Shown one piece after another: positions 17,406 through 51,088 of a DNA stretch of 57,767 nt. The notes under the pieces are model-generated. The model was not told the origin of the DNA, made no database searches, and worked only from the letters and a program-made list of their open reading frames with translations. The stretch's first letter is position 1. Each line of letters opens with the position of its first letter. A program made the position numbers and the translations under genes. The stretch is from a virus (lineage: Duplodnaviria; Caudoviricetes): positions 1 to 57,767 of the IMG/VR virus record IMGVR_UViG_3300030060_004810. One strand, written 5' to 3'.

Positions 17406-17413
17406 GTCAATTC

Positions 17414-19330
17414 CTATGCGATTGCTAAAAATATGTAAGTGCCGCTAGAAGCATTAAGTCCTGCTGGCGCTGATGATGTCACTGTAAATCCAGAGCTAAG
17501 GGGGTCTATGTAATCTGTGTTGGTTACTTGAGTGTCAGTGGTGTTTAAAAGCAAATACGGATCGTTACCCGCCACAATGCCTCTAACAGAATCGTAAAGA
17601 TACCAATCTCCAGTAGAATCTGTGCGTTTAATTAATACAAACCTAGCACCAGCACTAAATCCACAGTCAACATTTAAGTCACTACCTGTTCCGGTGTAGC
17701 TACCTATTTTTGATATGCCATCTACACTCGCAAACAAATAAGCTATAAAAGTTTGACTGCTGGTATTTGTAAATGCGCTGTAGGTTGAAAACACGCTAGA
17801 TGTTGGTGCTGTGTCATTCCAAAATCCCACAGATGTTGCTGTAGCTGACGCTCCATTTAGGTACGTTGCTTTAGTAGCCCCCGATGCTGAGTGATAAACA
17901 AACCAGTTGTCTGCGGCAGTACGCGATTTAACAATCATTATTTCAGGGGTTACCCCTAAATTATGAGACACTGTTCTCCCGTTTGTTCCATCGCCGGTAT
18001 AAGTTACAACATCAAAGTAACCTTTAGCCCTGCGCCACATCCATGCATACTCATCAGCATTTGCTGAAGCGCCTTCTCTGTGACCGTTCATGTAGTCAAA
18101 AGTTACGCTACTAATCGTTGACTCAGAAGAAGTATCATTTGTAAACAGAACGTTACTGCCAGTAAGGCGAGAAGCTATTTGGCGACTTCCAGTTTCGTCT
18201 ACCGTTCTATGAATAGCCATATCAACAGGGAAACCGCTAATAAAAGCAGGAGAAGTTGTTGTTGTTCGATTGTCTACAGCAAACAAATCAGTAGCCGCAA
18301 ACTCTGATGCTGGCTTATTGGGTCTGCGGATGGCTACATAAATCAAGGTTCCATCATAATATGTAATCGGTTTAAAGCCTCTAGACGTAAATTCAAAGAC
18401 ATCATTGGCAACTTCTGCGTTGGAGTTGTTCGTTCTAAGATATGCATTACGCATATTGTCAATTATCAACCACGCACCCAGCCCAGAATCAGAACTTGCA
18501 CCCTTAATTAACAACCATTGCGGCTCAAAACCTAAATTTACTTCAACGCCTACGGATGCAGAATTGTTAACAAACGAATCACAATAAATAATAGCTTCGT
18601 CAGAATTTTGGCCATAATCTGCTTCGTTATGGCCGAACAGGTAGGCCACATAGGTGTAGCCACTTTGATTACACTCTGCATTATTATCAACATAGAAGTG
18701 TGTTGATGTAGGGTTTTGATCGCCCCACCTGTCCTGCGTGTACTCTGCATTAGTCATGTTTAAACGCAACAGCTTTGTGTATCCAAGCGAGCGATGGTAA
18801 ACAATCCAATTATCAGCATGAGATGTTACTTTCACAATAATCATGCCCGGAACAGAGCCAAGGTTATGAGCTATAGCCCTATTGTCTGTTCCATCGCCCG
18901 TATAAGTTACAACGTCAAAAAATTTTTTTTGCTCGCGGAATGCCCAAGAAACGTAAGGAACATTACTTTCATTACCCCGCTTTGCTTGACCTAAGGCAAA
19001 CCCTGTAGATGTAAACCCTCCCACAATCCCCGGATACATAGGTGATTCACCAGCGGTGGCGGCGTCAGTGCTATTGCTTTCCAGAGCTGTCATAGCGCCA
19101 CCATCAAGAGGCCGTTCACTGTCATAAAGCGCGTGATCGTCTTCAGTGCCAGAATTGTCTCGACTTTTAATCCACAGCAATCCCCCCTCACCATCAAGAT
19201 CAAGTCCGTTGGTAACAGTCTGGTTAGAAAAATTGCCGGTGTATAAGGTCGTTGAAAACACATCATCAACGTAAACAGGGTCACCAGCGTTGCCAGCGGC
19301 GGCCTGTAATAGTTTAGTGCCTACGCTCAT
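17414..19330 (-). CDS. Tail fibre/receptor-binding protein
   Basis: 638 aa with repeated FDVVTYTGDG..R...HNLG..P.MIIVK modules. Followed by a chaperone gene. Confidence 0.7.
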   Translation of the reverse strand: MSVGTKLLQAAAGNAGDPVYVDDVFSTTLYTGNFSNQTVTNGLDLDGEGGLLWIKSRDNSGTEDDHALYDSERPLDGGAMTALESNSTDAATAGESPMYPGIVGGFTSTGFALGQAKRGNESNVPYVSWAFREQKKFFDVVTYTGDGTDNRAIAHNLGSVPGMIIVKVTSHADNWIVYHRSLGYTKLLRLNMTNAEYTQDRWGDQNPTSTHFYVDNNAECNQSGYTYVAYLFGHNEADYGQNSDEAIIYCDSFVNNSASVGVEVNLGFEPQWLLIKGASSDSGLGAWLIIDNMRNAYLRTNNSNAEVANDVFEFTSRGFKPITYYDGTLIYVAIRRPNKPASEFAATDLFAVDNRTTTTSPAFISGFPVDMAIHRTVDETGSRQIASRLTGSNVLFTNDTSSESTISSVTFDYMNGHREGASANADEYAWMWRRAKGYFDVVTYTGDGTNGRTVSHNLGVTPEIMIVKSRTAADNWFVYHSASGATKATYLNGASATATSVGFWNDTAPTSSVFSTYSAFTNTSSQTFIAYLFASVDGISKIGSYTGTGSDLNVDCGFSAGARFVLIKRTDSTGDWYLYDSVRGIVAGNDPYLLLNTTDTQVTNTDYIDPLSSGFTVTSSAPAGLNASSGTYIFLAIA

Positions 19331-28328: not shown

Positions 28329-28811
28329 TTAAGATGCGTCAGAAGTGCTGGATATTCCAAAAAACTTCAGGACAATAACCGTGTCACCGCCGGGATCTCC
28401 CGAGAGAACAATCTCAACTTCATCTGCCGTGCCCGTAGCCGCAGTGGTTGTTCCACCGGACATCCCAAGAACACCGTTACATGGAAAATACCCTTTAAAG
28501 CCGGTTGAATTTACAGCCGCAGAAATACCGTCAACAAAACCGTCAGTATCGGCATCTGTGCCGATATCGTTAAGCGTGACAGAGTTTGAAGATGCAGTGG
28601 TAACAGCAATTGTAACCGCCATAGGAATAAAGTTGTCTGGAATGCCAATCGCAGACTCTTTGCCCGTGGTAGCACCATCCGCCACCGTGATGGTCGCTTC
28701 GTAAGTAGAAAGCGTCATAGTGCTGGTTACAGCGCCGGTAGTAGAGTTTTTGGTAATGTCTGAGAAACCGTTTTCAGAACGGACGGGACCGTTAAACGTA
28801 GTATTAGCCAT
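28329..28811 (-). CDS. Putative minor capsid/decoration protein
   Basis: MANTTFNGPVRSENGF N-terminus, T/S/G-rich, first gene after the MCP terminator. Confidence 0.6.
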   Translation of the reverse strand: MANTTFNGPVRSENGFSDITKNSTTGAVTSTMTLSTYEATITVADGATTGKESAIGIPDNFIPMAVTIAVTTASSNSVTLNDIGTDADTDGFVDGISAAVNSTGFKGYFPCNGVLGMSGGTTTAATGTADEVEIVLSGDPGGDTVIVLKFFGISSTSDAS

Positions 28812-28881
28812 GAGGTTCTCCTGTCGTGGCCAGTGTCAGCCTCAGTATGGGGCTGTCAGGAAAAATTTATATTAACATAAA

Positions 28882-28897
28882 TGTTCCACGTGGAACA
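28882..28897. promoter_or_regulatory. parS: parS-like palindrome TGTTCCACGTGGAACA
   Basis: Perfect 16-bp palindrome matching the bacterial chromosomal parS consensus. Confidence 0.8.
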
Positions 28898-28920
28898 AAA
28901 AAAGCCGCCCGAAGGCGGCT
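28897..28920 (-). terminator. Intrinsic terminator after major capsid gene
   Basis: AGCCGCC-UUCG-GGCGGC-U7. Confidence 0.9.
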
Positions 28921-28926
28921 CTGTTT

Positions 28927-29832
28927 TTAGGCACCCGGTGTGCCAAAGACACAACGCCAATCGGAAACACCGAAACTGTAACGCTCACGCGCCTTGAAGC
29001 GCATGTTGCCAGTATCAAAGTCACCTTCCATTGCAGTCTTGATGGGGCTTCGGTTAAACATCTTGAAGCCGTTAGGTGCGTCAGTCTTAATGAAGAACGC
29101 ATCTGTGTCGGTCAAGAAATGGTTAACTACCGCGCCATCTGGGAGCATTCCCATAGACTTGGTTGCGTTGAGGTCATTGTCCGCAGTTCCCGGACGCAGG
29201 TTGGAGTTGATTACCCGCTCTGCAATAAATTGCAGTTCTTTCGGAATAATCATCTTCATACCACGTACCGCGATCTTCAGACCACGCTCATCGGTTAAAC
29301 CAGCAATATCAATCAGCATCTGCTCAAGAGAAGTCTCGTTGAGGTCAGCGGCGGTTGATAACAAGTTACGCTGGTTCCCTGAAAGGGACGGGTGAGCGGA
29401 AGAGCAGAGAGCGGCACCATCTCCAACAGGAGAACCGGTGCTAAAGGCGTTATTCAGAATTGAAGCGGCCTTAATCTGCTTGGTCTGGGACATGGATCGT
29501 GCCAAAGCACGGGTGTAACGAGAAGCAAGGCGGTCATACAGGTTGTCTTCAATCGCCTCTTCGGTGATTGAAAACGCTAGTGCAATCGTTTCGTGAGTAT
29601 AACGTGCAGTAAATGTCTCTTGCGCGTCATCAAACGAGATGGCACCACCCTCTGACTTAACCGGCGCAGTGCCGAAGCCAGACAGCATTACTTCTTCTTC
29701 AAAAGCACGATCAGAAGTTTCTTCTTCAAAAACTTCCGCGTGTTCCTGTTCGTAGCGATCATACTCAAGGCCAAAAAGAGCGTTAAGCCCCGGCTCAAGT
29801 TCCTTCGCCAACTGTGCGCGAGAAATAGCCAT
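28927..29832 (-). CDS. Major capsid protein
   Basis: MAISRAQLAKELEPGLNALFGLEY N-terminus, typical of vSAG 37-F6/HTVC023P-type capsids. Followed by a strong terminator. Confidence 0.9.
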   Translation of the reverse strand: MAISRAQLAKELEPGLNALFGLEYDRYEQEHAEVFEEETSDRAFEEEVMLSGFGTAPVKSEGGAISFDDAQETFTARYTHETIALAFSITEEAIEDNLYDRLASRYTRALARSMSQTKQIKAASILNNAFSTGSPVGDGAALCSSAHPSLSGNQRNLLSTAADLNETSLEQMLIDIAGLTDERGLKIAVRGMKMIIPKELQFIAERVINSNLRPGTADNDLNATKSMGMLPDGAVVNHFLTDTDAFFIKTDAPNGFKMFNRSPIKTAMEGDFDTGNMRFKARERYSFGVSDWRCVFGTPGA

Positions 29833-29845
29833 TACTTAATCCCCC

Positions 29846-30496
29846 TTAAATGCCGGTTGAGTCGGCAGTGGTTTGTGAAGCAAAACCACGTGTGCCAGCG
29901 TTGAAATGAGCGTTCAATCGAACAAGCAGATGTGCCCCTGTAGACGAATAATCATTGTTAGCATCATCGTCAACCAAGCCTACGATACGCAATGGTAGCG
30001 TTGCAGTAACAGCAATACTGCTTACGGAAAGCTGGGAATTTGACTTGCCTGTGTCGGTAGAACCGGTACGAGCAGAAGTTCCCAAGCTTGCGTTAGCAAA
30101 AACAGCCGTTAATGCAGTAGCTCGGTCAGTGAGGGTAGCATCCGCCGCTACGACGAACAGTTGGTCGGGGTTATCTGCCACAAGAGCCTTTACCGGGAAG
30201 TTGGTATCGACAGATACGCTTCCTGATCCGGGCCAATAATTAAGAAACACAGGTTTCTTTTGTGTGGCATCTTGATATTCAACCCCTACTAGAACGCCAA
30301 GGGCTTGCGTAGTGCCGCCACTTGTAGCTCCAGCTTGGTCAATAACGCCTGCGGCAGTGGGAACACAAATGCTTCCATTAAAAATAGCATTAGAGTTGTT
30401 ACTAGCAATTTCATACTGAGTAACGCCGGTGGTGTTAGCACCGCTTCCTACAAGACCAACAGGACGAAGACCAAAGGCAGTTTCTTGATTTGCCAT
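29846..30496 (-). CDS. Putative capsid cement/decoration protein
   Basis: MAN...FGLRP N-terminus; adjacent to the MCP gene. Confidence 0.6.
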   Translation of the reverse strand: MANQETAFGLRPVGLVGSGANTTGVTQYEIASNNSNAIFNGSICVPTAAGVIDQAGATSGGTTQALGVLVGVEYQDATQKKPVFLNYWPGSGSVSVDTNFPVKALVADNPDQLFVVAADATLTDRATALTAVFANASLGTSARTGSTDTGKSNSQLSVSSIAVTATLPLRIVGLVDDDANNDYSSTGAHLLVRLNAHFNAGTRGFASQTTADSTGI

Positions 30497-30522
30497 AATT
30501 TAGTTCCTCATGCTGTGCGGCC

Positions 30523-31005
30523 CTATTTCTTGGGGCCGCCAAAAGTTACACGACTCTGACGCTCGGGTTTGCCGATTGTCATCGTTGGATGAGCGTTTTC
30601 TCGCATCATATCGCTTTCAACAGCTTCGATTTGGTCCGCGTTACGTTGAGAAAAGTACTCAGCGCGTTCCTCTACTGTTTCCAACGGTATACGAGCGAGC
30701 ATCAATCCGCCAACACCAAACACACCCTCATATTTACCCGAATCAATTACCGGAGACTCAAAATCTGGATACTCGTCTTGGCGAACAAGCTCATAGCCTT
30801 CTCGCAACCTTGCCGAAATATTTTTGGTGTCGTCAAAACCCCTTACTTCGGCGCGTATCCAACGATGTTTAAAGCCCTCTGGTGCGGGCGGGGCGTCTAA
30901 CATAGACGGGGGAGTCCAAGGCTTACGCCGTCCCTGTTTCTCCCTTGACGCTGTTTCACGTGAGGAGCGATCAATACCCTCAAAGCCTTTCTTCTCTGCG
31001 GTCAT
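30523..31005 (-). CDS. Conserved head-module hypothetical protein
   Basis: W.PPS.LDAP.APEGF.HRWIR and REGYE.VR motifs. Confidence 0.75.
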   Translation of the reverse strand: MTAEKKGFEGIDRSSRETASREKQGRRKPWTPPSMLDAPPAPEGFKHRWIRAEVRGFDDTKNISARLREGYELVRQDEYPDFESPVIDSGKYEGVFGVGGLMLARIPLETVEERAEYFSQRNADQIEAVESDMMRENAHPTMTIGKPERQSRVTFGGPKK

Positions 31006-31009
31006 CTTC

Positions 31010-31930
31010 TTACTCCTTTACGTATTTCGCGTATTCTTCAAGCGGCACTCCCAATTTTTTAGCAATTGCTACTTGGGTCGGGGAGAGTTTGACCCTTTTA
31101 CCACTGCGCCCAGTTTTGGTGGAGCGTGAGACACCGGCAACATTCTGAGCGGGCTTGCGGCCAGTGGATTGCTCCTCTCCAAATTTATGCGGGAACTCCC
31201 GCTTAATTCTAGAGTCCAATTCATTGTAGTAGTCATCCCCTTGCGGGTCAAACCCTTCTTCTTCTATTAACTTTTTGTGAATTCCAAAGGCGGCAAAGGT
31301 CATCGCCTCATCGTTTCCAAACCAAGAGTTCTTTTCGGCCCACTGTTCGGCTTTAGGGTCAGGCCTTTGGGCCTGTTGCGGAGCCTGCTGTTGCGGCGCG
31401 GCTTGCGGAGCCTGTTGTTGCGGAACCTGCTGGTTAGCTTCAGCACGTCTCTGAGCCTGAGCATATTGATTAGCCGCAATACTAATATCCGTCAGTTCTT
31501 TCTGAGCAACTACGGTTCCTTCCGCATCACCTAGCTCAACAGCGCGTTTAAGAGCCGCTTCAGCCTGCTGTTGTTGAAGTTGAATGCGCTGACCGTATTC
31601 GGTCATAAAACCTTGGTCTAGGTTCTGCATTCTCTGTTTAATCTGTTCTGATTCGGCCTGCACATTTTGTGCAAACTTTACAGCCTCTTCTTCACGACGC
31701 TCGGCTTCACGCATTTTTTTAGTCAGACGATTAATACGCTTCTGTACAGATTCGCTGTATTCTGCGATCTCATCGTCAGACGAAGCCTCTTGCTCTATTT
31801 CAATCTCAGGTTGTTCCGAAGCAATTGTTTCACGTGGAACATCTTCTTCAGGTTGCTCAATCTCCACCTCTGTGGCTTCAGCATCTCCCACATCTAATTC
31901 AAACTGAGGTTCTTCGGCAGGTTCTCCCAT
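31010..31930 (-). CDS. Capsid scaffolding protein
   Basis: Acidic N-terminus, long coiled coil and LS..QVAIAKKLGVPLEEYAK C-terminus upstream of the MCP. Confidence 0.7.
   Translation of the reverse strand: MGEPAEEPQFELDVGDAEATEVEIEQPEEDVPRETIASEQPEIEIEQEASSDDEIAEYSESVQKRINRLTKKMREAERREEEAVKFAQNVQAESEQIKQRMQNLDQGFMTEYGQRIQLQQQQAEAALKRAVELGDAEGTVVAQKELTDISIAANQYAQAQRRAEANQQVPQQQAPQAAPQQQAPQQAQRPDPKAEQWAEKNSWFGNDEAMTFAAFGIHKKLIEEEGFDPQGDDYYNELDSRIKREFPHKFGEEQSTGRKPAQNVAGVSRSTKTGRSGKRVKLSPTQVAIAKKLGVPLEEYAKYVKE
31826..31841. promoter_or_regulatory. parS: parS-like site TGTTTCACGTGGAACA (inside scaffold gene)
   Basis: 16/16 match to TGTT[TC]CACGTG[AG]AACA; encodes VPRET. Confidence 0.75.
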
Positions 31931-31942
31931 GGTGCTTCTCCT

Positions 31943-32389
31943 TTACAAACTAAGAATGTCTTCTGGATCGTCAATAGTCGCTAAGATTTCGTCATCATTC
32001 AAAATCCTGCACTCCCCACCGTCTATACGGAACCGAGAACCAGCATAACGAGCAAAGATTACCCACTGTTTTTCGGTGCACCACGGGCCGTCAGGGAACT
32101 TTTCAGCGTCTTTATAGCAAAGAGGGCCTTGCTTAACGACATATCCCACAACAGTCTGAAGCTGAGTGTCGTTCAGAACTTGATTTGGGATGTAAATACC
32201 GCCTTCAGTAGTTTCTCTACCGCGATATGGGAGGATTAACATGCGCCAACCGGTAGGCTGTGGCATCCGCTCCAAAAGACTTTTGTCCATGGCCTCGGGG
32301 TCGAGTACCTTGGGCTGTGGAGCTTTGTAAAGGGATTTGACGCCCTCTGCGGCGGCGTCTAGGTCAATTTCTTCAGCTAGATCAGTCAT
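31943..32389 (-). CDS. groES: GroES-like co-chaperonin
   Basis: PTGWRMLI, TEGGIYIP, VIFARYAG and ILNDDEILA motifs. Confidence 0.85.
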   Translation of the reverse strand: MTDLAEEIDLDAAAEGVKSLYKAPQPKVLDPEAMDKSLLERMPQPTGWRMLILPYRGRETTEGGIYIPNQVLNDTQLQTVVGYVVKQGPLCYKDAEKFPDGPWCTEKQWVIFARYAGSRFRIDGGECRILNDDEILATIDDPEDILSL

Positions 32390-32579
32390 TTAGTTGCTCC
32401 TGTTTTTCTAGCAGGCCCGAGAGTTCCTGTGCTACATAATTCAAAGCCGATAGCTCACCCATAAGGTTTTGGTACTGCTCCATCGACTTTACACTGTTGT
32501 TTTCTAACAATTCCAAGACTTGTGTGCGGCGCTCTTTTATAACCTTTTGTATAAATTGAGCTAGGTATAATGAGTCCAC
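32382..32579 (-). CDS. Hypothetical protein
   Basis: 65-aa helical ORF (MEQYQ...GE) typical upstream of phage GroES. Confidence 0.7.
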   Translation of the reverse strand: MDSLYLAQFIQKVIKERRTQVLELLENNSVKSMEQYQNLMGELSALNYVAQELSGLLEKQEQLND

Positions 32580-32606
32580 ATGCGCTCCATCTCAGAAAGT
32601 CTTATC

Positions 32607-32635
32607 TATATACCACGACAGTCTAAGAGGAGCAA
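32607..32635 (-). promoter_or_regulatory. Putative sigma70-like promoter for head operon
   Basis: TTGCTC-17-TATATA with extended TG, in the intergenic gap. Confidence 0.5.
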
Positions 32636-32983
32636 CTAATATGTCCACATGACGGGTCCAGTGGTGCGAATATCGACGTGAATAAACGTCTTTGCAACAC
32701 CTATGCCGCCAAACCCTAACTTTAACGCTTCTTCTACGATTTTCCTGCGCTCAATCCCGTTATCTGCGTGAATATCCGCCGCAATGCCCTGTGCATGAGT
32801 GCCGGGTTTTACTTTGGCTTTTTCAATGGAATGTTCTGGGGAACGGTAACCAGAGGTAATGTGAAAAGGAAAATTACACGCCTCGCGAAGCTCATCCAAA
32901 CGTGCAATAAAATCTGGGACAATTTTGTTTTCGCCAGTTTCCTGACAAACAAATTCTTCTTCTTTGAAGTATTTGTAGGTCAC
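32636..32983 (-). CDS. Peptidase M15 family endolysin
   Basis: ITSGYR, H..GIAADI and FIHVD zinc-binding motifs. GTG start coupled to the upstream stop. Confidence 0.85.
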   Translation of the reverse strand: MTYKYFKEEEFVCQETGENKIVPDFIARLDELREACNFPFHITSGYRSPEHSIEKAKVKPGTHAQGIAADIHADNGIERRKIVEEALKLGFGGIGVAKTFIHVDIRTTGPVMWTY

Positions 32984-33174
32984 TCTTTTTTGCCCAAAAA
33001 TAGCCCAAACGCGCCTGTTAACGCACCGGTCATGACACTGACCAATGCCGCTTGCTCTGGGTTTGGATCGGGTAACGACATAAACCACTCAACCGTCCGG
33101 TATGTCATCCCAATCATGGCAAACATGAGTACCCGTGGAATAATTCGCCACGCGTTAAGCTGTTCTGGCGTCAA
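32980..33174 (-). CDS. Small two-TM membrane protein (holin-like)
   Basis: WRIIPR motif and two hydrophobic helices next to the endolysin. Confidence 0.6.
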   Translation of the reverse strand: MTPEQLNAWRIIPRVLMFAMIGMTYRTVEWFMSLPDPNPEQAALVSVMTGALTGAFGLFLGKKE

Positions 33175-33325
33175 GGTTTTCGTCCTCTTTCTTTCCCCAC
33201 CAAACCACTACAAACGCACCGCATTCGGGACAAGAAAGATTAGTTTCAATTAAATGCTCATCGTCACGATCATTATCATGATCGCCGCCCCAGATCAGTT
33301 CAGTTTGGCAGTCATAACACTTCAT
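33155..33325 (-). CDS. Small zinc-ribbon protein (56 aa, not in ORF track)
   Basis: Hand translation: MKCYDCQTELIWGGDHD...NLSCPECGAFVVVWW. ATGA-coupled to the holin gene. Confidence 0.75.
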   Translation of the reverse strand: MKCYDCQTELIWGGDHDNDRDDEHLIETNLSCPECGAFVVVWWGKKEDENLDARTA

Positions 33326-33723
33326 TTTTCGCGAGCTACCTGTTTGGTCTTCTCAAAGGTCCGTAGACCACCGAGGCCCAACATCCCAAGCAAAACTGTA
33401 AGAAGGCTCTCCATTTCAAACACAGGTAACGGAGGGGCTTCCACACCAGCAAATGTGATGACAAAAACAGCAATAGGCTGGCCGACAAAGTGCCAAGCCA
33501 GAGCAACACCGCAAGTCCACCCAACAAATGGTCGCCAGCCCGCGACAAACATAGATTTATGTGCCGCTTCAGCTTTATTAATTTCAATCTGACCTTGTGC
33601 AAGCTCTTGAGCATGACGCTCTGACATTGTTGCAATTTCATGTGCAAGCTTCGCCTTTTCGTCAGCATCCGGTATGAACTTATCCAGTAAACCGGTAACG
33701 GGACCTATCAGTGCCTGTAGCAT
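33322..33723 (-). CDS. Holin of 3TMs (GTA-type) family
   Basis: LLDKFIPD, FVAGWRPFVGW and GMLGLGGLRTFEK motifs. Confidence 0.8.
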   Translation of the reverse strand: MLQALIGPVTGLLDKFIPDADEKAKLAHEIATMSERHAQELAQGQIEINKAEAAHKSMFVAGWRPFVGWTCGVALAWHFVGQPIAVFVITFAGVEAPPLPVFEMESLLTVLLGMLGLGGLRTFEKTKQVAREK

Positions 33724-33737
33724 CAAAACCCCCTAAA

Positions 33738-33938
33738 TTAAGCGTTAGTGAAGCGTGAGCCACGTAAAGCCGCCCCCATACCACGCTTTTTGCCTGTAGT
33801 TACCTTGGCAAACGTAATATCCGGAGTCTTTTCTTCCTTTGCTACAGCGTAAGGAATAGAGCCTTGACCTTGAATATCGGCCTTGGCTACAGGGTTTGGG
33901 GGGTTCTTAGGCGGTGCGCCGTCTACTTTAACTCTCAT
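33738..33938 (-). CDS. Small basic hypothetical protein
   Basis: 66 aa with a RGMGAALRG..F C-terminus; GAGG ribosome-binding site. Confidence 0.7.
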   Translation of the reverse strand: MRVKVDGAPPKNPPNPVAKADIQGQGSIPYAVAKEEKTPDITFAKVTTGKKRGMGAALRGSRFTNA

Positions 33939-33939
33939 A

Positions 33940-36375
33940 TCAATTACCTCGTTTTAACAATTCACGTTGTAAAGCCGCATCAATCCTAGCCTGCGTCTGT
34001 CTTTCCTGACTAGCAAGCCGTTGCTGGAACTCAGTCTGCTTGTTAGCCATACGCTGTTGATCCATCTGCAACTCTGCCTGATCTATCTGCAAATCGGCCT
34101 GTTGCTTCTGAGCATCCAACTGAAGCTCCTGTTGCTTGAGTTGCACCAGCGGGTCACCTTGGTTCTGGCCCGTGATCTGTGCCGTAAGCTGTTTCAGTTT
34201 GGCAAACTCTTGTGCGTTGATCTGAGCAACCATGGCTTCTAGCTCAAGCTCCATGTCGGCATTCAAAGGCTGACCGCCTGTTTGCTGTAAAAGTTGTGCC
34301 GTAGCAAGCTCTTGGCTCTTAACCTTAACGTGTTCCATCACGTGCTTTTGCAACGAAATAGCAGACTGTGGCAACGCCTGTAGCGTCCCAGAAGTGCCAA
34401 ATGTCAGGTGCGTCATAATGTGAGCATCGTGATCCTGACCCTCAAACACCTTTAGTTGTACGCTATCCAAGGCGTCAATGTTCTCTTGAGCAGGGTCTTT
34501 CGGTATCGGATCGTCTGAAGACGGCGCTATCAATATCTTGTCTACGTCATTGACCCCCAAAGCCTCGTACATACGACGATACGCTTCATGCAAATCATGT
34601 ATTTGCGGGGCTTGCATGGCCATCTGTAGCTGGGCTTGTGCCAGTGAAATGCGCTGTGCCTGCGAGAAAGAGTTGGGGTTTGATACCGGAACCACGTCTA
34701 TCCGGTCGTCAAAGTCCCGTTGCATAATCGCACGATCACCGCCCATCACCGCATAGGGATACTCCTGCGGTAAATACTCGGACATCACCCGCGCAAGAAG
34801 CTTGAACTCCTGACGCATCCCATAATGCAGACGTTTATGCACCGCGCTCATGACCCGTGAGCCCTGTTCCAACAACGCTACCGTCGTGCCGACAGCCGCC
34901 TGCTGGTTACCATCGCCCACCTTCATGTCAGTAATCGTCGCAAACCGACGACCCGCATCCACCACAAAGCCCAAAAGCTGGAACAAGGTCGTGTCCGGAC
35001 CCTTGAACGGCAACGGCATCAAAGAGTCCCTGATAGCCCCACCGGGCGCATCTACGTCCCTGAACTCACCGGGCTGTAGCGGTTCCTCATCGTCCCTGAC
35101 CCGTAGGCCACGGGCCTTGAAGCCTGCCGGCAGGTTCGACAGCGTACCCGCATCAATCAACTGACGTAAGGCCGCAGTGGCTGTGCGAGACAGGCCACCA
35201 ATAGTATGGATCAAACCAAGGCCGTAAAATCCAAAACCGGGCAAAAACTTGTAGTGCACGAAATACTGGATCTTTTTCTTTACGTCGCTTTCTTCTTTAA
35301 AATTGCGTCGAATAGACAGCACTTGGCCGCTATCTTCGCTTATCGTGACGATATACGGAACTTTGATGCCCGTTGGCTCGCCATCTTCCCCCGTGTCTTC
35401 AAAACCTTCTAGGTCCAGATTGACGTGGCACTCAAGCAAAGTGCAGTCATAATCCAGATTGCTGGGCTCTACTCCGTCCAGCTTATTAATTTCACCCGTA
35501 ATCTCGTCCTCTGCGCCTTGCGCCGGAATAACGGGAATGTCCCTGTAAAAACCCATGACCTGCCGAATACGCAGATCATTTAGAGTCATCTTTACGACCT
35601 GAGTAATGTTTTCACAAGAATCTAAATCACTGGCACCATAGGGCACCACAATGTCCTCTGCGGGGACAAACTTGCTGACAGCGCGGTCTATCGCCTCGTC
35701 ATAGTAAACTTTCTTGAAAGTAGAACCGGCCAGCGGCAGATAAAACAACATTTGATCAAACTCAGGCGTGTACTCCTCCATCACATTGGTGATGTAGTAG
35801 TTCATAAACTCTTTTACACGAAACGCCTGCGCCTCGTTTTCTCGCGTCTTCTCACCAATAATCTGAGTGCGGACAGGACCTGAAGGCGGCAAAAGCTCGT
35901 TAAAAGCCTGTGCCTGAAACTGTGTGGCCGCTTCTGCAAGCAAAGGGTGCGTTACGCCGGTAGCCCCTCTGAAGGGCATTGTGCGCTCTTCATAGTTGTA
36001 TCCCAAAAGCTCCAAGCCCTTGGAATACGCGTCTTCCCACTCGGAACGAGATGATTTGTTAGCGTCGAACTCGCCTAGAAGCTCTGAAGATAAGCGGCCA
36101 AGCTCTCTATCGTCCAACTCCTCTGCCAAGTTGCGATAGAAATCGCCGTCATCAAGGCCAACCATCGCCATGGGATCAAAATCGACAATGACGCCACCGT
36201 CTTCTTCTGCCTCAATCTCTATTCCTTCCGGCAAAACTTCGTTGACTTTACCTACAAAAGTACCCGGTGCGGCTATCTCAATATCTAATTCAAGATCGGC
36301 GTCTTCTAATTCAGAACGAGGGGCCGTGCTATCCATCAACGAAGATAGCTGTGCTTTATCGTCACCATTGGCCAT
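33940..36375 (-). CDS. Portal protein
   Basis: 811 aa with HPLLAEA..QFQA, LPLAGSTFKKVYYD and GFYGLGL motifs and a C-terminal coiled-coil barrel. Confidence 0.88.
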   Translation of the reverse strand: MANGDDKAQLSSLMDSTAPRSELEDADLELDIEIAAPGTFVGKVNEVLPEGIEIEAEEDGGVIVDFDPMAMVGLDDGDFYRNLAEELDDRELGRLSSELLGEFDANKSSRSEWEDAYSKGLELLGYNYEERTMPFRGATGVTHPLLAEAATQFQAQAFNELLPPSGPVRTQIIGEKTRENEAQAFRVKEFMNYYITNVMEEYTPEFDQMLFYLPLAGSTFKKVYYDEAIDRAVSKFVPAEDIVVPYGASDLDSCENITQVVKMTLNDLRIRQVMGFYRDIPVIPAQGAEDEITGEINKLDGVEPSNLDYDCTLLECHVNLDLEGFEDTGEDGEPTGIKVPYIVTISEDSGQVLSIRRNFKEESDVKKKIQYFVHYKFLPGFGFYGLGLIHTIGGLSRTATAALRQLIDAGTLSNLPAGFKARGLRVRDDEEPLQPGEFRDVDAPGGAIRDSLMPLPFKGPDTTLFQLLGFVVDAGRRFATITDMKVGDGNQQAAVGTTVALLEQGSRVMSAVHKRLHYGMRQEFKLLARVMSEYLPQEYPYAVMGGDRAIMQRDFDDRIDVVPVSNPNSFSQAQRISLAQAQLQMAMQAPQIHDLHEAYRRMYEALGVNDVDKILIAPSSDDPIPKDPAQENIDALDSVQLKVFEGQDHDAHIMTHLTFGTSGTLQALPQSAISLQKHVMEHVKVKSQELATAQLLQQTGGQPLNADMELELEAMVAQINAQEFAKLKQLTAQITGQNQGDPLVQLKQQELQLDAQKQQADLQIDQAELQMDQQRMANKQTEFQQRLASQERQTQARIDAALQRELLKRGN

Positions 36376-37298
36376 CAGGCTCTCCTAGTGTATGGGGCAA
36401 ATGCGCCTACGCCGCGTCTTATATCATACCCTCGGAACATGTTCCGTGCCACGGGAGCCATGGAACCCACACCGCCGCCCATGGCGTAATTTTTAACAGC
36501 GGCCTCTGCTTCGCGTTCCTGCCGCTCTTCTAACCGTTCTTGGTTCTGTTCAGAAAGCTCTTCGTTATACTCTTCTAATTCTTCGTACTGATTTAAAAGT
36601 TTGATTGCCGGGGATTCTTCGATACGGGCGCGGATGTAGTCATCCCTGTCTTCCTGCATTCCCTGTCGCGTGGACCGTGCGCCACGGTCCCATTCATCTC
36701 CAAATATTACTGAGCCGACCCCTCTTGTCGGATAGTCTCTTTCACGACGAAGAGCATTACTAAAATAATCAAGAGTTTCAGAGCCGGTTTTCCTTTTATA
36801 CGAACTATTAAGCATCTCAAATAGTTGGCGGTCATCCAGAGCAGTCAAAAAATCCGCAATTCTTACGGCTCTTTCACTTAATCCGGGAAAATTTTTATGC
36901 CGGTATTCGTGTGCATAAATTTCAGGCTTGGCAAATCTATCAACGACGTTCACAGTTCCCGATTCTGGGATTACTCTATGCCTTGTAAGACCACGATAAT
37001 TTTTTCTGTTGTAAAGAAAATCTATAGGATATTTGTCTAAAAAAGTGCCTTCCGGATATTCTTCGTCTGGAGGAGGATAAAAACCTCTTAACACCTTGTT
37101 TGGACCAGACTCGGGAGTACTATATGAAGCAATGTTGGGCAATCCCTGATACCGAGCAATAGACGGGTCTATGTCCGCCGCATAGTTGCTTTGAGCGGCA
37201 ACCTCGATAGCAAACTCATTGTCAAACGCCTGCTTTCGCAGTCGTTGACGCTCCAAAGCCGCTAAGAATTCAGGGTCTTGTTCTACAAGCTTGTCCAT
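36375..37298 (-). CDS. Hypothetical virion-associated protein
   Basis: 307 aa with an HEYRH (HExxH) motif and C-terminal YAMGGGV. Confidence 0.65.
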   Translation of the reverse strand: MDKLVEQDPEFLAALERQRLRKQAFDNEFAIEVAAQSNYAADIDPSIARYQGLPNIASYSTPESGPNKVLRGFYPPPDEEYPEGTFLDKYPIDFLYNRKNYRGLTRHRVIPESGTVNVVDRFAKPEIYAHEYRHKNFPGLSERAVRIADFLTALDDRQLFEMLNSSYKRKTGSETLDYFSNALRRERDYPTRGVGSVIFGDEWDRGARSTRQGMQEDRDDYIRARIEESPAIKLLNQYEELEEYNEELSEQNQERLEERQEREAEAAVKNYAMGGGVGSMAPVARNMFRGYDIRRGVGAFAPYTRRA

Positions 37299-38887
37299 TA
37301 TCGGGCCATGGGCATAATGCCCGTCTGCATCGTGGGCCGTGGTGAGGTTTTCGCGAGGTTACGGCGAAGGGTCGCCTTAGATCGTTGCGGGTTTAAGAGA
37401 GTCTCCAACCCTTGGCCGGTCATGGACATGTCCATACCGCCGGTCAAATCCACAATACCGCCCATGGCAAACTGACCAGTATTTGCCGCCGCCGCCGCTT
37501 CTGCCGCCCGACGTTCTTCCAAAGCTTGAAAGGCGGCTTGTGAGGAGGTTAATCCTGTCGGACCGGTGGGTACGAGATTCATGCCGCGTGAAGATACCGG
37601 AGTCCCTTGCTGATAAGCCACGTCGCCGGGGTCTACATCTTTATTGCCCTTTCCGCTGACATCTCCAGCAATCAGACTTTGAAACACTGAAGAATCTCGT
37701 CCTGCCGCGTCAAAAGCCTTTAAAACTTGGTTGGCTTCTTTGTTTGTTAAAACATTTGCGGGCATGACAGTGGAGGGCAAAAAACCCGTTCCTGTCCGAC
37801 CCTCTCTCCCCGTCTCAGCGTCACCTACGGCTCCTTCAACAATAAATTTAAGAACTTCATAAGCGGATTTTAGCTCGTCATCCATCTCCATAAGCTCTTC
37901 GTCAACAAAGGGCGTAGGTGGCGGAGCCGTAGTTGTAGTAACGGGAGTAGTAGTTTGCGTTGCGGGAGCAGGCGTGGAAGTAGACGTAAAGATATTTCCA
38001 CGACCCTGTGTATCCTCCAAGTTGACCGGCTGTGCATCCGCCGTCGTAGCAGTCAATGTGGGCGTTGGGCCAGAGGGTGGAACATACGGGTAGGCCAGAT
38101 CAGACGCCGGAGTCAGGTATGGATTTACCGGGTCCGGTTGATTCATGGGATCAAACTGACCTTCGTTGTAGGTGTAAAGGTTAGGTTGTTCCGAAGAATC
38201 GACCAGCACATCACTTGTTGTGAAAAACGGCTGTCTTGGCGTACCGCCCGTAGGACGAACCGCGCCAAAGGTAGAACGAAGGCCTTGATCGGTATACTGC
38301 ATCAAGAAATTATCGTCTGTCGCAAAGCCGCCCGTTTTGCTGGCAGAATCTATCGAATCAAATATCCGGCTCCATCTTGCTTCCGTCTCAGCATCAAAGT
38401 CTGTTCGTTCAAAAAAACTTTCTCTATTAAAAGTTTGATCTGGACGATTAAAATAAGCTTCTAGCCATACCGAATCTGCCGCCTTTGGTGAACGAGCAAA
38501 ATAATTGCTAAACCACGCGTAATCTTCATCGGTGACTAGACCCAAAAGACGTAGCGTGTCCACCATCTGACTATTAGTGGTTTCGCGGTAAGGTACGACC
38601 ATGTTTTCGTCAAAATACAAATAGGACGGTAAAGGTGTTTTACCCTGTCCTTTTGCACCGGCTGTTGCACCAGCTATCGCGGGTAAACCCACGGCGGCAC
38701 CCGTATCAACGGTAGTGCCACTTGCCGCCGCCTCTGCGGCCCGCGCTACCGCGTCTGCGTCATGCGGGATATCAAAATTTCCGGTAACTGGATTACGCAT
38801 CATCCCCATTTTATTAACGCTACCGCCATGAAACATAGACCGAGGAGCATATGAACCAATGCCGGACATCAACATTTTATTTCCCAT
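37298..38887 (-). CDS. Hypothetical virion-associated protein
   Basis: 529 aa with a T/P-rich linker, MFHGGSV and FAMGGIV motifs. Confidence 0.65.
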   Translation of the reverse strand: MGNKMLMSGIGSYAPRSMFHGGSVNKMGMMRNPVTGNFDIPHDADAVARAAEAAASGTTVDTGAAVGLPAIAGATAGAKGQGKTPLPSYLYFDENMVVPYRETTNSQMVDTLRLLGLVTDEDYAWFSNYFARSPKAADSVWLEAYFNRPDQTFNRESFFERTDFDAETEARWSRIFDSIDSASKTGGFATDDNFLMQYTDQGLRSTFGAVRPTGGTPRQPFFTTSDVLVDSSEQPNLYTYNEGQFDPMNQPDPVNPYLTPASDLAYPYVPPSGPTPTLTATTADAQPVNLEDTQGRGNIFTSTSTPAPATQTTTPVTTTTAPPPTPFVDEELMEMDDELKSAYEVLKFIVEGAVGDAETGREGRTGTGFLPSTVMPANVLTNKEANQVLKAFDAAGRDSSVFQSLIAGDVSGKGNKDVDPGDVAYQQGTPVSSRGMNLVPTGPTGLTSSQAAFQALEERRAAEAAAAANTGQFAMGGIVDLTGGMDMSMTGQGLETLLNPQRSKATLRRNLAKTSPRPTMQTGIMPMAR

Positions 38888-38892
38888 AAGAT

Positions 38893-40377
38893 TTACCCGT
38901 AATATTGCATTGGCCGAAGATTTGCACTCTCATCTTCCCAATAATCTGATGGCAACTGCACAAAGTTACCCTGTCGGTATCGCATCAACGCCTGTGTCGT
39001 GCTGTCTACCAAGTCATCATACTCCCCATTAGGGAACGCCGCACACTCTTCTATCACATCGTGCGCCCAAGACTCATCCGGTGCCCAAATCATACCGCTT
39101 TCAAAAAGCGGAGAGACACTGTGTACCCGCGATACCTTATCGTTACCGCGACTCGGCGTAAAGTTTACCACAGGAATGCCCATGTTCCGTAGTTCGTGGG
39201 TCAAAGGCATACCACTCGCCTTTGCCTCAATAATTACCGTCTCAGGCTCCCAAAATTTGTAGGATTCCATCGCAACTTGCTTCAATTCAGGGAAATCCCA
39301 GCGCCCTTTCTTCGCATCCAGCAAAATCAGACCCGCAACCGTCCCTTCTTCAGGATAAAACACGCCCCAAGTCGTAATCGCACTGTAATCCGCCCGCGTA
39401 TTCTTGGAAAAAGCCGTGTCATAGCTCTGAATCACGTATTGCAACTGCGGAATCTGCTGTTTATCCCACACATTCCACCACTCACGCTTGATAATCGCGT
39501 TTTCATCACCCGTAGGGTTCTGCTGGTACTGGGCATTCCACTTCGGCAGAGGAATTGACGCTTTTACCGCTTGCATCTCCTCAAAAGACCAGAACTCAGG
39601 CCACAAAGGACCGCCCGAAGGCATCTCCATAGGGAACTCAATGACCTCCCAGTTGTCCGCCAAGGCGTCCCGACCCTGTGCCCGGATCAATTGACCCGTC
39701 AAATCCTTCTCTGACCACCTAGTCATCACCACAATGATGGCCCCGCCCGGTTGCAAACGCTGTCGAGGACCACCCGTGTACCAATCCCATGCATCATCAA
39801 AGCCACTCAGCGACATCGCGGTCTGCTCAGAGTGCGGATCGTCAATAATGATCAAGTCACCACCACGTCCCGCCAAGTTTGACCCCACACCCACGCCGTA
39901 ATACATACCACCACGGGCCGTGTCCCACCTGCCGGACGCCTTCGAGTCAGCAGAAAGCGCCGCATCGGGGAAAATTTCCAGATAATCATCCCTCTCCAGC
40001 AGATTCTTGATCTTCCGGCCAAAGTTGACCGCAAGCTCCGTGGTGTGCGTAGCCTGAATAATCTTCATCGCGGGGTTTTTACCAATCATCCAAGCCGGAA
40101 ACAGGAAACTCGCAAACTCAGACTTTGTGTGACGCGGCGGCATGTTGATGATCAACCGCTTCAACTCCCCACTGGCCACCCGCTCAAGCTTTTCCGCCAT
40201 GATCTTGTGGTGACGACCCGCAATAAACTCGGGCCACATCGTCCGGACAAAGCTCAAATAGTCCGTCTGACACGACTCAACCTGCTCAATCTGCGCCAGC
40301 CGGTATTCAAGCTTCAGAATCTTCTCTTCCGCTTCCTCTAAGGACTCAAAACTAGAACCATCACTCCGCATAAACAC
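38893..40377 (-). CDS. terL: Terminase large subunit
   Basis: INMPPRHTKS Walker A, IIIDDP Walker B, VMTRW, SYDTA and DDLVDS nuclease motifs. Confidence 0.93.
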   Translation of the reverse strand: MFMRSDGSSFESLEEAEEKILKLEYRLAQIEQVESCQTDYLSFVRTMWPEFIAGRHHKIMAEKLERVASGELKRLIINMPPRHTKSEFASFLFPAWMIGKNPAMKIIQATHTTELAVNFGRKIKNLLERDDYLEIFPDAALSADSKASGRWDTARGGMYYGVGVGSNLAGRGGDLIIIDDPHSEQTAMSLSGFDDAWDWYTGGPRQRLQPGGAIIVVMTRWSEKDLTGQLIRAQGRDALADNWEVIEFPMEMPSGGPLWPEFWSFEEMQAVKASIPLPKWNAQYQQNPTGDENAIIKREWWNVWDKQQIPQLQYVIQSYDTAFSKNTRADYSAITTWGVFYPEEGTVAGLILLDAKKGRWDFPELKQVAMESYKFWEPETVIIEAKASGMPLTHELRNMGIPVVNFTPSRGNDKVSRVHSVSPLFESGMIWAPDESWAHDVIEECAAFPNGEYDDLVDSTTQALMRYRQGNFVQLPSDYWEDESANLRPMQYYG

Positions 40378-40550
40378 TAGCTCTCGGGGTTAGTAAGTAC
40401 TCACTTCAATTATAAACATATATGCGATCCGGTAGCTCTCAATTTTTTGCAAATTTTTTGAGGCTCTGGGACTCCTATGCGCGTTTTTTTTGAACCGTAG
40501 CACGTTTTACGGACCACGGCTCGGGGCTTACGGGTTTTTTCCGAAAAAAT

Positions 40551-40566
40551 TGTTCCACGTGGAACA
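40551..40566. promoter_or_regulatory. parS: parS-like palindrome TGTTCCACGTGGAACA
   Basis: Perfect 16-bp palindrome in non-coding DNA upstream of terL. Confidence 0.8.
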
Positions 40567-40665
40567 TCGATATCGTTTTTCTGTTCTGTTGTTCGTGAGA
40601 AACATGGCATTTGTTGCCGCTTGCTTAGGCGCGGGCGCGTTTCGCGGAAAATTCGCCAAAAATCG

Positions 40666-40823
40666 CGGCCCACGGCCCGCTGACGCGCTCGGCTGGCGGG
40701 CCCCGCGGACCGCGGCCCACGGGGCGCGGACCGGATACGCGGCGGGACGATTACCGGACACGCGGCGGCGGCCCACGGCCCACGGCTGGCGGTACGTTTC
40801 GATGGGATCTCGGGGCGCGGACC
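40666..40823. repeat. GC-rich non-coding short repeats
   Basis: CGGCCCACGG at 40666, 40713, 40769 and 40776; GGGGCGCGGACC at 40721 and 40812. Confidence 0.7.
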
Positions 40824-40947
40824 CCGCGCCAGTTGTTACGGATCGGTTGCGGCGGAGTGCTCAGAAATTACTTGAACGGCTAGCCCGCGCGGTTGTGCGG
40901 ATTCGTATGCTGCCAGGCGCATACAACTTTTGGCGCTAGCGGCAGGC

Positions 40948-40974
40948 AAAAAAACCCCGCCTCGAGGGCGGGGT
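40948..40974 (-). terminator. Intrinsic terminator ending the early array
   Basis: ACCCCGCC-loop-GGCGGGG-U7; hairpin identical to the one in 41558-41585. Confidence 0.88.
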
Positions 40975-40994
40975 CCAATGGTGGCCGCTACTGG

Positions 40995-41252
40995 TCAGCG
41001 GCGGGCGGGTATGCGGATCAGATCGCGCTCGAGATCGTCAGAGATCCCCCAGCGGACGAACGTGTCCCCCGTGGGCTTCAGCCTGCCATTCACCGCTCGA
41101 TAGATCAGCGGCTCCGCGTTGGCGGTTTTGCAGACCAGATACTCGGACCCATCGGTGAGCCCTTTCGATTGATCATAGTCTCGCAGGCGCTTCACGCAGA
41201 ACCAGACCATCATGCTTCCGTAAACCTGTTCGATCGGTGCAATCCGGATCAT
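40995..41252 (-). CDS. Small early hypothetical protein (85 aa)
   Basis: ATGA-coupled to the upstream ORF; ends before the terminator. Confidence 0.65.
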   Translation of the reverse strand: MIRIAPIEQVYGSMMVWFCVKRLRDYDQSKGLTDGSEYLVCKTANAEPLIYRAVNGRLKPTGDTFVRWGISDDLERDLIRIPARR

Positions 41253-46079: not shown

Positions 46080-46497
46080 TACTTGTAAGGACCTCTCTGT
46101 AGGAAACAGGGAAACTGAAATGCTTATCCGGTGTAGCCCGCAATCCGTCCTGCCATACGTCCACTGCTCGATTGCCTCGATAAAGGAACACCTCATGTCC
46201 TGTGGCGCTGGTCAGCTTAACGGCTATCCAGACACTGCCCTTGGCATGTTGGGTCATAAACGCAACTTGGTGGGGAGACATCTTCACGCTCATGTTTGCC
46301 GTGGTCTTCAGTTCCACCATGTGCCAATTACCCTGACTGTCCATGATCAGGACATCCGGCACACCCAAGGTGGCTCTGGATTCTAAGCGTGTGGCTGACC
46401 AATCAGGAAAGTTGTCCCTCATCGCTTTCTTCAGAGACTGCCAGAAGCTCGCCTCCCTCTGTTTCTTCGTCTTCGGCTTCCCGTCCAGTATGTCCAT
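46063..46497 (-). CDS. VRR-NUC / PD-(D/E)xK nuclease (resolvase-like)
   Basis: E...W, GVPDV, VELK and SPHQ motifs. Confidence 0.8.
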   Translation of the reverse strand: MDILDGKPKTKKQREASFWQSLKKAMRDNFPDWSATRLESRATLGVPDVLIMDSQGNWHMVELKTTANMSVKMSPHQVAFMTQHAKGSVWIAVKLTSATGHEVFLYRGNRAVDVWQDGLRATPDKHFSFPVSYREVLTSIASMR

Positions 46498-47092
46498 CTG
46501 TTTCCTCCGCTAAACGCTCTCGAGCGCGTTTTCGATTACCAGCGTCCTCTGCCCCCGCGTCATGGGTCAAAGGGGCGTAGGTCTGCTTCAGTTCGTTCAA
46601 AGCTTTCATGACCTCTTCTTTGCTCATCTGCTCAATCGTGCCGTGGCGAATCTCTGTCTTGTTAACGTAGATGTCGCCCTGCGCCTGACCCCTGCGGTAC
46701 TCAGCCTGCACTGCCGCACTGAACGCCCCCTGCTCAAGGGCGGCATCTCGAATAAGTTGCAGATCTCTCAGGTGGCGCTGGTATTCCACGCCGTACTTCT
46801 GATCAAGCTCCTGCCGATACTCTCGAATGGCTCTGCACACATGGGGGGAGATGCGGGGATTGGTTAGCTCAGAAGCGCGGACATGAGCAGACTTCTCAGG
46901 GTAGCCAGCATTGATGGCCGCTTCCCGCATGGTGATCTGCCCGTCCTTTGCTACAAGCTCACGTACAAACAATTCCTGCCTGCGGGTCAAACGCTTCTCT
47001 GCCAAAGGGGGTCGGTTCGTCTGCTGGCGCTTTGCTTCCGGCAAAGCCGCCGCTTTGGTGTCCAAAACATTGGCGTATCTGTTCTTGGCCAT
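46403..47092 (-). CDS. terS: Terminase small subunit
   Basis: LTRRQELFV...EAAINAGY..KSA...ASEL HTH signature. Confidence 0.8.
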   Translation of the reverse strand: MAKNRYANVLDTKAAALPEAKRQQTNRPPLAEKRLTRRQELFVRELVAKDGQITMREAAINAGYPEKSAHVRASELTNPRISPHVCRAIREYRQELDQKYGVEYQRHLRDLQLIRDAALEQGAFSAAVQAEYRRGQAQGDIYVNKTEIRHGTIEQMSKEEVMKALNELKQTYAPLTHDAGAEDAGNRKRARERLAEETDGHTGREAEDEETEGGELLAVSEESDEGQLS

Positions 47093-50943: not shown

Positions 50944-51088
50944 CGTGTTCTCGCACCGCTTCACTTTTAGCTTGGAGCAACTGTTGCCAGACTTCCAGCT
51001 TATCGAACTGATCCTTGGACACCGTGCCGTTTGCAAAGTCCTCTTCAAACTTTTTCAAAGCTTTATCAAACTCTTGCTGGATGGTCAT
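50909..51088 (-). CDS. Small helical protein (59 aa, not in ORF track)
   Basis: Hand translation: MTIQQEFDKALKKFEEDF... ATGA-coupled. Confidence 0.65.
   Translation of the reverse strand: MTIQQEFDKALKKFEEDFANGTVSKDQFDKLEVWQQLLQAKSEAVREHDAKDVNNPRRN

Follow-up and report, generated by a model that had tools for sequence, protein, structure and literature searches.

The 57,767-bp stretch of DNA analysed here (the window) is a whole virus record of IMG/VR (IMGVR_UViG_3300030060_004810; CheckV 100% complete, GC ~50%), and the elements in question are three 16-bp words with the form of parS, the centromere-like site of chromosomal ParB, which lie among and beside its head and packaging genes (Table 1). 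Genes of the window are almost entirely on the minus strand and include, by PHROG and Pfam matches, those for a DNA polymerase, helicases and a primase, a portal gene (33940-36375) and a GroES-like gene. The nearest named phages by identity of the large terminase (TerL) are 023Pt_psg01 (64%), Pelagibacter phage HTVC027P (62%), DSL-LC04 (59%) and HTVC023P (54%). These identities, together with the size, GC and core genes (terminase, polymerase, helicases, GroES), which agree with the HTVC023P type as set out in the accessible text of PMC9599517, uphold the assignment to that type made in an earlier reading of the window from its letters (the original prediction). Hosts of the named relatives are Pelagibacter and 'Gammaproteobacteria', the latter being the host named in the record of DSL-LC04. 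Judged by its gene content the window phage appears to be lytic, or 'virulent'; no tRNA was found in the window, and a megablast of the window against the phage collection gave no match.

Table 1. Coordinates of the parS words and of other features; positions are those of the window unless another contig is named.
Feature	Position	Strand	Basis and setting
parS site 1, perfect palindrome TGTTCCACGTGGAACA	28882-28897		motif match; intergenic
parS site 2, TGTTTCACGTGGAACA	31826-31841		motif match; within gene 31010-31930 (-), codons ~30-35
parS site 3, perfect palindrome TGTTCCACGTGGAACA	40551-40566		motif match; non-coding gap, 174-189 nt before terL start
Partial copy TGTTTCACGTGA, left arm plus core, 12 nt	30952-30963	+	inside gene 30523-31005
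Five-site parS clusters of distant relatives	L200 10535-11462; L128 2657-3444		contigs 11-21% complete
Large terminase gene terL	38893-40377	-	phrog_38, E = 3.7e-105; opens head and packaging block
Promoter-like element ATCGCATATATGTTTATAAT	40409-40428	-	31 nt before terL start; counterpart of sister-clade ATCGCATATAAT; sequence resemblance only
Conserved non-coding block CCATGTTTCTCACGAACAA	40589-40607	-	single occurrence in window; aligned across clades, visible in G003 and G004
Terminator-like hairpin closing early gene block	40952-40976	-	upstream of parS-bearing gap
Major head protein gene	28927-29832	-	phrog_371, E = 4e-20
Terminator-like hairpin after major head gene	28901-28922	-	abuts site 1
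Mu-gpT-DE RNA motif	28809-28861	-	Rfam RF03012, 65.4 bits vs gathering score 49
Small terminase gene	46403-47092	-	Terminase_2, 30 bits vs cut-off 26.1; core gene, present also in site-less genomes
Recurring early-region unit	~41546	-	
Recurring early-region unit	41840, 42592, 43687, 45094	+	

A motif scan recovers all three of the predicted 16-mers: TGTTNCACGTGNAACA matches the window exactly three times, the mean in shuffled sequence is 0.00 and 0/100 shuffles reach three, so that a chance origin is as implausible as had been claimed. No site is added in the window when up to three mismatches are allowed. The 12-nt partial copy, which had likewise been reported and is present, is missed by that scan because it carries four mismatches over 16 nt, and it may be a decayed site. 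Half-sites number ten in the window, where simulations give 4.4 +/- 2.1, but seven of the ten belong to the full and partial sites, and an enrichment of half-sites beyond the full and partial copies was rejected on these counts. Chromosomal parS has the consensus form TGTTNCACGTGAAACA, and the window sites are 16-bp palindromes that match TGTTNCACGTGAAACA / TGTTCCACGTGGAACA. The two highest-affinity sites of Pseudomonas aeruginosa, parS2 and parS3, are given as TGTTCCACGTGGAACA in the accessible part of PMC4368675; sites 1 and 3 are thus identical to them at 16/16 positions, in keeping with the earlier claim that the word is chromosomal parS in a form known from Pseudomonas. What the window sites lack is the usual chromosomal location, near the origin and beside parAB, since they are on a 57.8-kb virus record without parAB.

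Sites 1 and 3 are intergenic on the gene map, as had been stated. Site 1 separates the major head gene from its neighbour at 28329-28811 (-) and abuts the T-run of the head-gene terminator, and an AT-rich, -10-like stretch begins 7 nt further. It is kept in the related record G001; G002, G003 and G004 keep the head-gene terminator and the leader but have no parS in this otherwise conserved region, and site 1 in this respect resembles an insert. Site 3 is inside a 617-nt gap that extends from terL to an open reading frame (ORF) at 40995-41252, and none of the mechanically called ORFs that overlap this gap recurs in G002, in G003 or in any of the four named phages. Site 2 does lie inside a gene, as predicted, but the 'scaffold' label that had been given to that gene could not be confirmed, because its sole match is PHROG 28737, annotated 'unknown function'. 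At the spot corresponding to site 2, G001 has TGTTCCACGTGGAACA and G008 a copy with one mismatch.

The original prediction looked to related genomes for a check, and the outcome is positive. A TerL probe retrieved >600 relatives from IMG/VR, and in the best 80, taken for counts, the word is present in 46, mostly at one homologous spot upstream of terL: 70 sites in 756,760 bases where 0.003 are expected, while two control words of the same composition have no match in the same bases. Of the 70 sites, 42 remain intergenic even under a deliberately greedy ORF caller, with some intragenic cases (L021, L074, L076). Whole records hold three perfect sites (G001, G004), two (G003, G006, G009) or one (G007), and G008 has one perfect site and one with a single mismatch, so that several host-type parS copies are maintained in the lineage as well as in the window. 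These counts argue that the 16-bp word is under selection in this phage lineage. Two distant relatives (L200 and L128; TerL 28-30%, head protein ~40% identity) carry five identical TGTTTCACGTGAAACA sites each, all of them inside a stretch of ~0.9 kb that lies upstream of terL.

Motif shape was taken from 63 distinct 40-nt contexts, each counted in both orientations. Information is at most 0.15 bits beyond the two flanking nucleotides on either side, with A mildly favoured ahead of the site and T behind it, and the free positions 5 and 12 admit no bases but C/T and G/A, respectively (0/126 counts otherwise). Constraint thus stays within the 16 bp and variants are confined to Y5/R12, as in natural parS; since the constraint ends at the 16-bp edges, the motif matches the known ParB site and not a longer operator. 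A word scan across IMG/VR found at least 119 stretches, and among the matches listed from this wider sample the Y5/R12 rule is kept in 144/150 sites.

The position upstream of terL is where the sites behave most clearly as a removable part. There were 81 TerL rows including the window, 76 of which had enough upstream sequence for scoring, and 38 of these have a site at most 260 nt upstream of terL (20 with one, 18 with two). Within the window's clade the word is a clean ~17-bp insert at one spot in otherwise alignable DNA, with no copy in L004, L005, L006 and L009, one in the window, L008, L012, L013 and L014, and two in L016. A second clade, at ~77% TerL identity, has 0, 1 or 2 copies (23-24 bp apart) between a conserved ATCGCATATAAT and the terL ribosome-binding site, and in L038 one of the two terL-upstream copies has decayed. 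Among the tandem loci (L033-L061), 17/18 pair one TGTTCCACGTGGAACA (CC/GG) with one TGTTTCACGTGAAACA (TC/GA), in either order; L016 is the only two-site locus with identical copies, and it is a possibility that the mixed forms serve to avoid a perfect direct repeat. The best-conserved non-coding element upstream of terL across clades is CCATGTTTCTCAC(G/A)AACAA (for example in L043, L057 and most terL-upstream loci), and the parS insert is always downstream of it, by 22 nt in the window and ~45-90 nt in aligned relatives. This block could be a late-promoter, activator or pac element.

As to what may bind the sites, the window itself offers no candidate of the expected kind. A six-frame search of the window with ParB_N, HTH_ParB, AAA_31 (ParA type) and Phage_integrase found none of them (0 matches to the ParA and ParB profiles at E <= 1), the control genomes did match, and the claim that this phage has no parA/parB or integrase therefore stands. 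The window thus has no parA/parB of its own beside the centromere, as a plasmid or prophage ParABS cassette would have, and no ParB/KorB-fold regulator was seen: Pfam scans of 20 early and other ORFs found no ParB or HTH_ParB, only the small terminase, GP88, Pam3 gp33/gp34-like domains, a weak Hjc match and a borderline RHH match. Nor was ParB_N found in any of 17 site-bearing viral records other than the window, of which 11 hold at least two sites each and the remaining six belong to the family or are more distantly related to it. The L200 and L128 contigs (fragments, 11-21% complete) gave no ParB_N match.

A phage-encoded regulator as the true binder had been named in the original prediction as the case that would overturn it. 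Across nine whole genomes, including the four named phages, no early gene is present in all site-bearing and absent from all site-lacking members; only two tiny ORFs of the structural block co-occur with the sites, and neither has a Pfam match. At 11 loci, no gene in the 10 kb upstream of terL co-occurs with the sites, the only common one being the small terminase, which is present also where sites are absent. The small terminase acting at a pac site was itself considered as binder and rejected, as it is a core gene present in site-less genomes and the sites are dispensable. With no co-occurring phage gene found, a host factor is the likelier binder.

Bacterial chromosomes hold a candidate for that factor together with the same word. 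Five bacterial metagenome-assembled genomes (MAGs; 1.6-5.9 Mb) carry no more than 0-2 sites each, in contrast to three in the 57.8 kb of the window, and these are beside parB where both share a contig: G022 has sites at C160:16351 and C160:18368 with ParB_N at C160:19881, and G024 a site at C2:9012 with ParB_N at C2:7223, distances of 1.5-3.5 kb. ParB_N is present in 5/5 MAGs that hold binned relatives of the window phage, with perfect sites in 4/5, binning being weak evidence of host. It is also present in 146/151 genomes sampled from the class of G024 (145/150 without the unpublished G069). In view of the latter count, hosts without ParB are an unlikely reason for the absence of sites from pelagiphages, and we rejected this explanation.

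We hypothesize that the 16-mers are chromosomal-type parS that serve as docking sites for host ParB. Host ParB is the most economical binder because no phage gene tracks the sites, the carriers have no ParB_N and ParB_N is near-universal in the sampled bacteria, and we regard its binding to the phage words as likely. In the proposed mechanism, host ParB-CTP would nucleate at phage parS and spread over the junction of the early and late gene blocks; the bound ParB would hitch the infecting genome to the host ParABS/SMC machinery, as in phage phi29 with Spo0J; and the phage genome so coupled would be positioned in the cell and, should lysis come late in slow-growing marine hosts, inherited by the daughter cells. 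That the selected sites load host ParB on a ParB-less, lytic-looking podovirus with inheritance or positioning as the main payoff seems to us about an even proposition. Most sites are on or beside late promoter-like elements, and for that reason the same ParB complex would probably also damp the packaging operon while phage copy number is low.

Several observations weigh against this reading of the sites as a means of inheritance or positioning. None of the four named phages (HTVC023P, HTVC027P, 023Pt_psg01, DSL-LC04) has a perfect site, with HTVC027P and HTVC023P having one one-mismatch word apiece, and this is so even though ParB is near-universal in one sampled class that possibly holds some of the hosts. 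G002 (97% complete) has no perfect site and one with a single mismatch, and G005 (65% complete) has no perfect site. The other 38 of the 76 scoreable rows are without a terL-upstream site, among them L004 and L005 at 97-99% TerL identity, and the trait undergoes at least ten changes of state on a FastTree TerL tree, so that it is evidently dispensable. Profile searches of the window found no lysogeny or plasmid-maintenance genes, and a scan of the window for CtrA-type TTAA-N7-TTAA boxes gave 0 matches. A generic sigma-70 scan found no excess of sites over shuffles, and the promoter calls are a matter of resemblance. Finally, it is not obvious why a lytic genome that replicates to many copies should need partition. 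The claim that the phage recruits host ParB is partly supported: it stands as to its premises, in that the sites are real, beyond chance, exact parS and present in relatives, with no ParA, ParB or integrase of phage origin, and falls short in that named relatives lack a perfect site. The plasmid-like carrier state and the titration of ParB put forward with it are possibilities.

The closest precedent is Bacillus phage phi29, for which the accessible text of PMC2731898 describes five parS sites and a role for Spo0J in moving the phage genome into the prespore, part of the host segregation machinery being exploited. We scanned the phi29 genome (19.3 kb) and found the perfect TGTTTCACGTGGAACA four times, once immediately behind the gene for the packaging ATPase, and ten matches at three or fewer mismatches, a number that 0/200 shuffles reach. 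Like phi29, the window phage is a podovirus, virulent to judge by its genes, with its own DNA polymerase, no parA/parB and several host-type parS copies, and its site 2 is the same 16-mer as the phi29 sites. It differs in belonging to an unrelated family of HTVC023P type and ~58 kb, with no terminal-protein replication identified in the window; in that sites of its family are mostly intergenic and concentrated upstream of terL as an insert of 0, 1 or 2 copies; and in having no companion sites for a host regulator, whereas phi29 has Spo0A boxes. CtrA boxes were considered as a phi29-like companion switch for deferment and rejected on their absence from the window. Spore entrapment is an unlikely payoff here because the hosts of the named relatives are Pelagibacter and 'Gammaproteobacteria', which are not spore-formers, and a general form of the phi29 trick is therefore preferred. 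Bacillus phage Nf is a further virulent phage with host-type (Spo0J-binding) parS.

Other systems share some of these properties. Sites of the window family resemble the ParABS centromeres of P. aeruginosa in their identical 16 bp (parS2/parS3), their natural Y5/R12 variants and their clusters of up to five in distant relatives; unlike chromosomal ParABS, they are on a virus, away from oriC and parAB, and the replicon encodes no ParB or ParA. The genomic island SGI1, which has no partition proteins of its own, mimics the parS of its IncC helper plasmid and uses the helper's ParB (PMC10954446, accessible part). The window phage would likewise be a mobile element borrowing the parS word of another replicon; SGI1, however, is an integrative mobilisable island that mimics a plasmid parS, and its stabilisation and incompatibility were shown experimentally. 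KorB-OB and phage orphan ParB systems also have palindromic ParB-family sites at promoters and gene-block borders, but they combine their own ParB or KorB with their own site, whereas the window has no ParB-fold gene and its site is the host chromosomal consensus. Lastly, CtrA boxes have been linked to 'lytic deferment' in phages of Alphaproteobacteria, and how the deferred phage chromosome survives is given as unknown in the accessible text of PMC9437464. There too the idea is that a virulent phage puts off or times lysis through binding sites for a protein of the host cell cycle, but the host protein and the site are different.

Among the alternatives, the one that survives best accepts that host ParB binds and makes the purpose purely regulatory, with parS as an operator that gates the late packaging operon and the dilution of ParB by replication as a copy-number timer. 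In the sister clade the one or two sites occupy precisely the interval from the -10-like ATCGCATATAAT to the ribosome-binding site of terL; in the window, site 1 overlaps with the -35/spacer of the promoter-like stretch right after the head-gene terminator; and in G004 a gene starts 46 nt beyond one of the two early-region sites. ParB is also known to repress promoters near an intergenic parS to which it is bound, at parS3 and parS4 in P. aeruginosa (PMC5521831) and at comCDE in Streptococcus pneumoniae (PMC4488948), as far as the accessible parts of these sources go. Site 3 of the window, on the other hand, is ~120 nt upstream of the promoter-like element and not on it, the five sites of L200 and of L128 are spread over 0.9 kb, and there are intragenic sites (site 2; L021, L074, L076). 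In a compact genome nearly all intergenic DNA is near a promoter anyway, and the promoters were assigned by resemblance. On balance we consider a purely regulatory purpose unlikely.

It may be, in a bolder combination to which we give a similarly low chance, that ParB-CTP clamps silence the packaging genes and at the same time tether the single-copy genome to the segregating nucleoid, until replication titrates ParB and releases late expression. If so, the leader of the packaging operon would hold a swappable control module of 0, 1, 2 or 5 copies, lytic deferment would be achieved with neither lysogeny genes nor spores, and the hijacking of ParB would be a general persistence strategy of 'lytic' phages across phyla.

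A further alternative is that replicating phage DNA is a sink for host ParB, and thereby for ParA and SMC loading, which derails host segregation and division. The words are perfect and of high affinity and would be multiplied by phage replication, and the accessible text of PMC10954446 describes a dose-dependent loss of stability of the helper plasmid caused by the SGI1 mimics of parS. Nevertheless there are merely 1-3 sites per genome, half of the relatives have none, and the strong preference for a single position is left unexplained, which makes a sink improbable.

It is no less improbable that the word is the operator of a DNA-binding protein encoded by the phage, whose site happens to coincide with parS. 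The positions are operator-like, many small early ORFs are without annotation, and one ORF (51085-51315) has a borderline RHH-like match at 25.3 bits against a cut-off of 26. That ORF, however, is missing from G003; no early gene is common to G000, G001, G003 and G004 yet absent from G002 and the four named phages; no gene within 10 kb upstream of terL tracks the sites; distant viral records, all of them without ParB_N, share the word together with its Y5/R12 variants; and the match to the host site is exact at 16/16.

A role for the palindrome in RNA, where it would fold into a hairpin and terminate, attenuate or stabilise transcripts, was rejected and seems very improbable. In a consensus scan sites 1 and 3 do come up as weak terminator-like hairpins with T-rich runs behind them, but the stem has six pairs, three of them G-C, and never covaries, and the mixed variant TGTTCCACGTGAAACA (L034, L036, L051) breaks the pair between positions 5 and 12. 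The tandem-site clade has no T-run after its sites, the T-run after site 3 is present also in site-less relatives, and the leader fold is unremarkable (z = -1.35).

Chance, or passive remnants of captured host DNA, is effectively refuted, for although single matches are expected in very large viral collections, the shuffle and relative-count statistics, the restriction of sharing between sites to 16 bp and the recurrence at a homologous position across clades all speak against it.

Phages phi29 and Nf already show this kind of phenomenon, and SGI1 offers an analogy. What is new is its presence in a phage family abundant in the sea, with insert-like gain and loss of 0-5 copies at one spot in the terL leader, in hosts that are probably non-sporulating; the position beside putative late promoters, called by their resemblance to promoter elements, is also new. 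In a literature search, which had supplementary files outside its scope, no paper came up that describes host-type parS in phages from the sea or of HTVC023P type, and the accessible text of PMC9599517 has no mention of parS or ParB. A selected docking site for the segregation protein of the host suggests that these phages can be carried along, or timed, by the host cell cycle. This would bear on how 'lytic' marine phages persist in slow-growing hosts, be it by lytic deferment, by pseudolysogeny or in a carrier state. The survival of a deferred phage chromosome could have one possible answer in orphan parS, and the phi29/Spo0J idea would extend beyond spore-formers. Natural variants with 0, 1 or 2 sites in near-identical backgrounds are a ready experimental handle, and orphan parS words could mark this lifestyle in viral metagenomes independently of host.

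Apart from the window, 11 IMG/VR records (G010-G020, corresponding to L090, L097, L107, L121, L126, L127, L128, L140, L147, L158 and L166) have 2-5 parS words each, and ParB_N was found in 0/11 of them. They include small records of 11-18 kb as well as L126, a 77-kb, 97%-complete record with three sites in 260 bp.

As to hosts, relatives of the window phage are binned in MAGs labelled Maricaulis, Verrucomicrobia, Rhodobiaceae and Geobacteraceae, which we take as weak hints. A 5.4-kb contig in a Maricaulis sp. MAG (L221) encodes a TerL fragment 100% identical to window residues 165-494, and the chromosome of the Maricaulis-labelled MAG has two parS sites 1.5-3.5 kb from parB. L221 may have been binned there by coverage only, and the phage GC of ~50% may be low for a Maricaulis host.

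The remaining non-coding features of the region are of interest in their own right. Immediately downstream of site 1, gene 28329-28811 has the Mu-gpT-DE RNA as its leader, and this leader is conserved in G002-G004; by the Rfam match, the motif is present in a podovirus of HTVC023P type. A GC-rich non-coding stretch (40620-40950) with several imperfect GCGGCCCACGG-like repeats, for which an origin or a pac site are possibilities, separates the early-block terminator from the terL-upstream parS site. The early region further contains a recurring unit in which a terminator-like hairpin is next to (T)ATCGCATA (CGCATATA at 42592), some copies having a CGCAATGTCGCGGCG-like word, and the unit looks like a family of early/middle promoter-terminator junctions. 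The small terminase gene is 6 kb from terL, within the early block beside the Hjc-like ORF, and is arranged differently in L095 and L202.

Parts of the structural block are poorly conserved. The large ORFs at 2142-6827 (-), 16908-19330 (-) and 36375-38887 (-) have counterparts confined to G001 or none; a 1561-residue ORF has a 73% identical counterpart in G001 only, and a 638-residue ORF has no counterpart even there. These are probably fast-evolving proteins that interact with the host.

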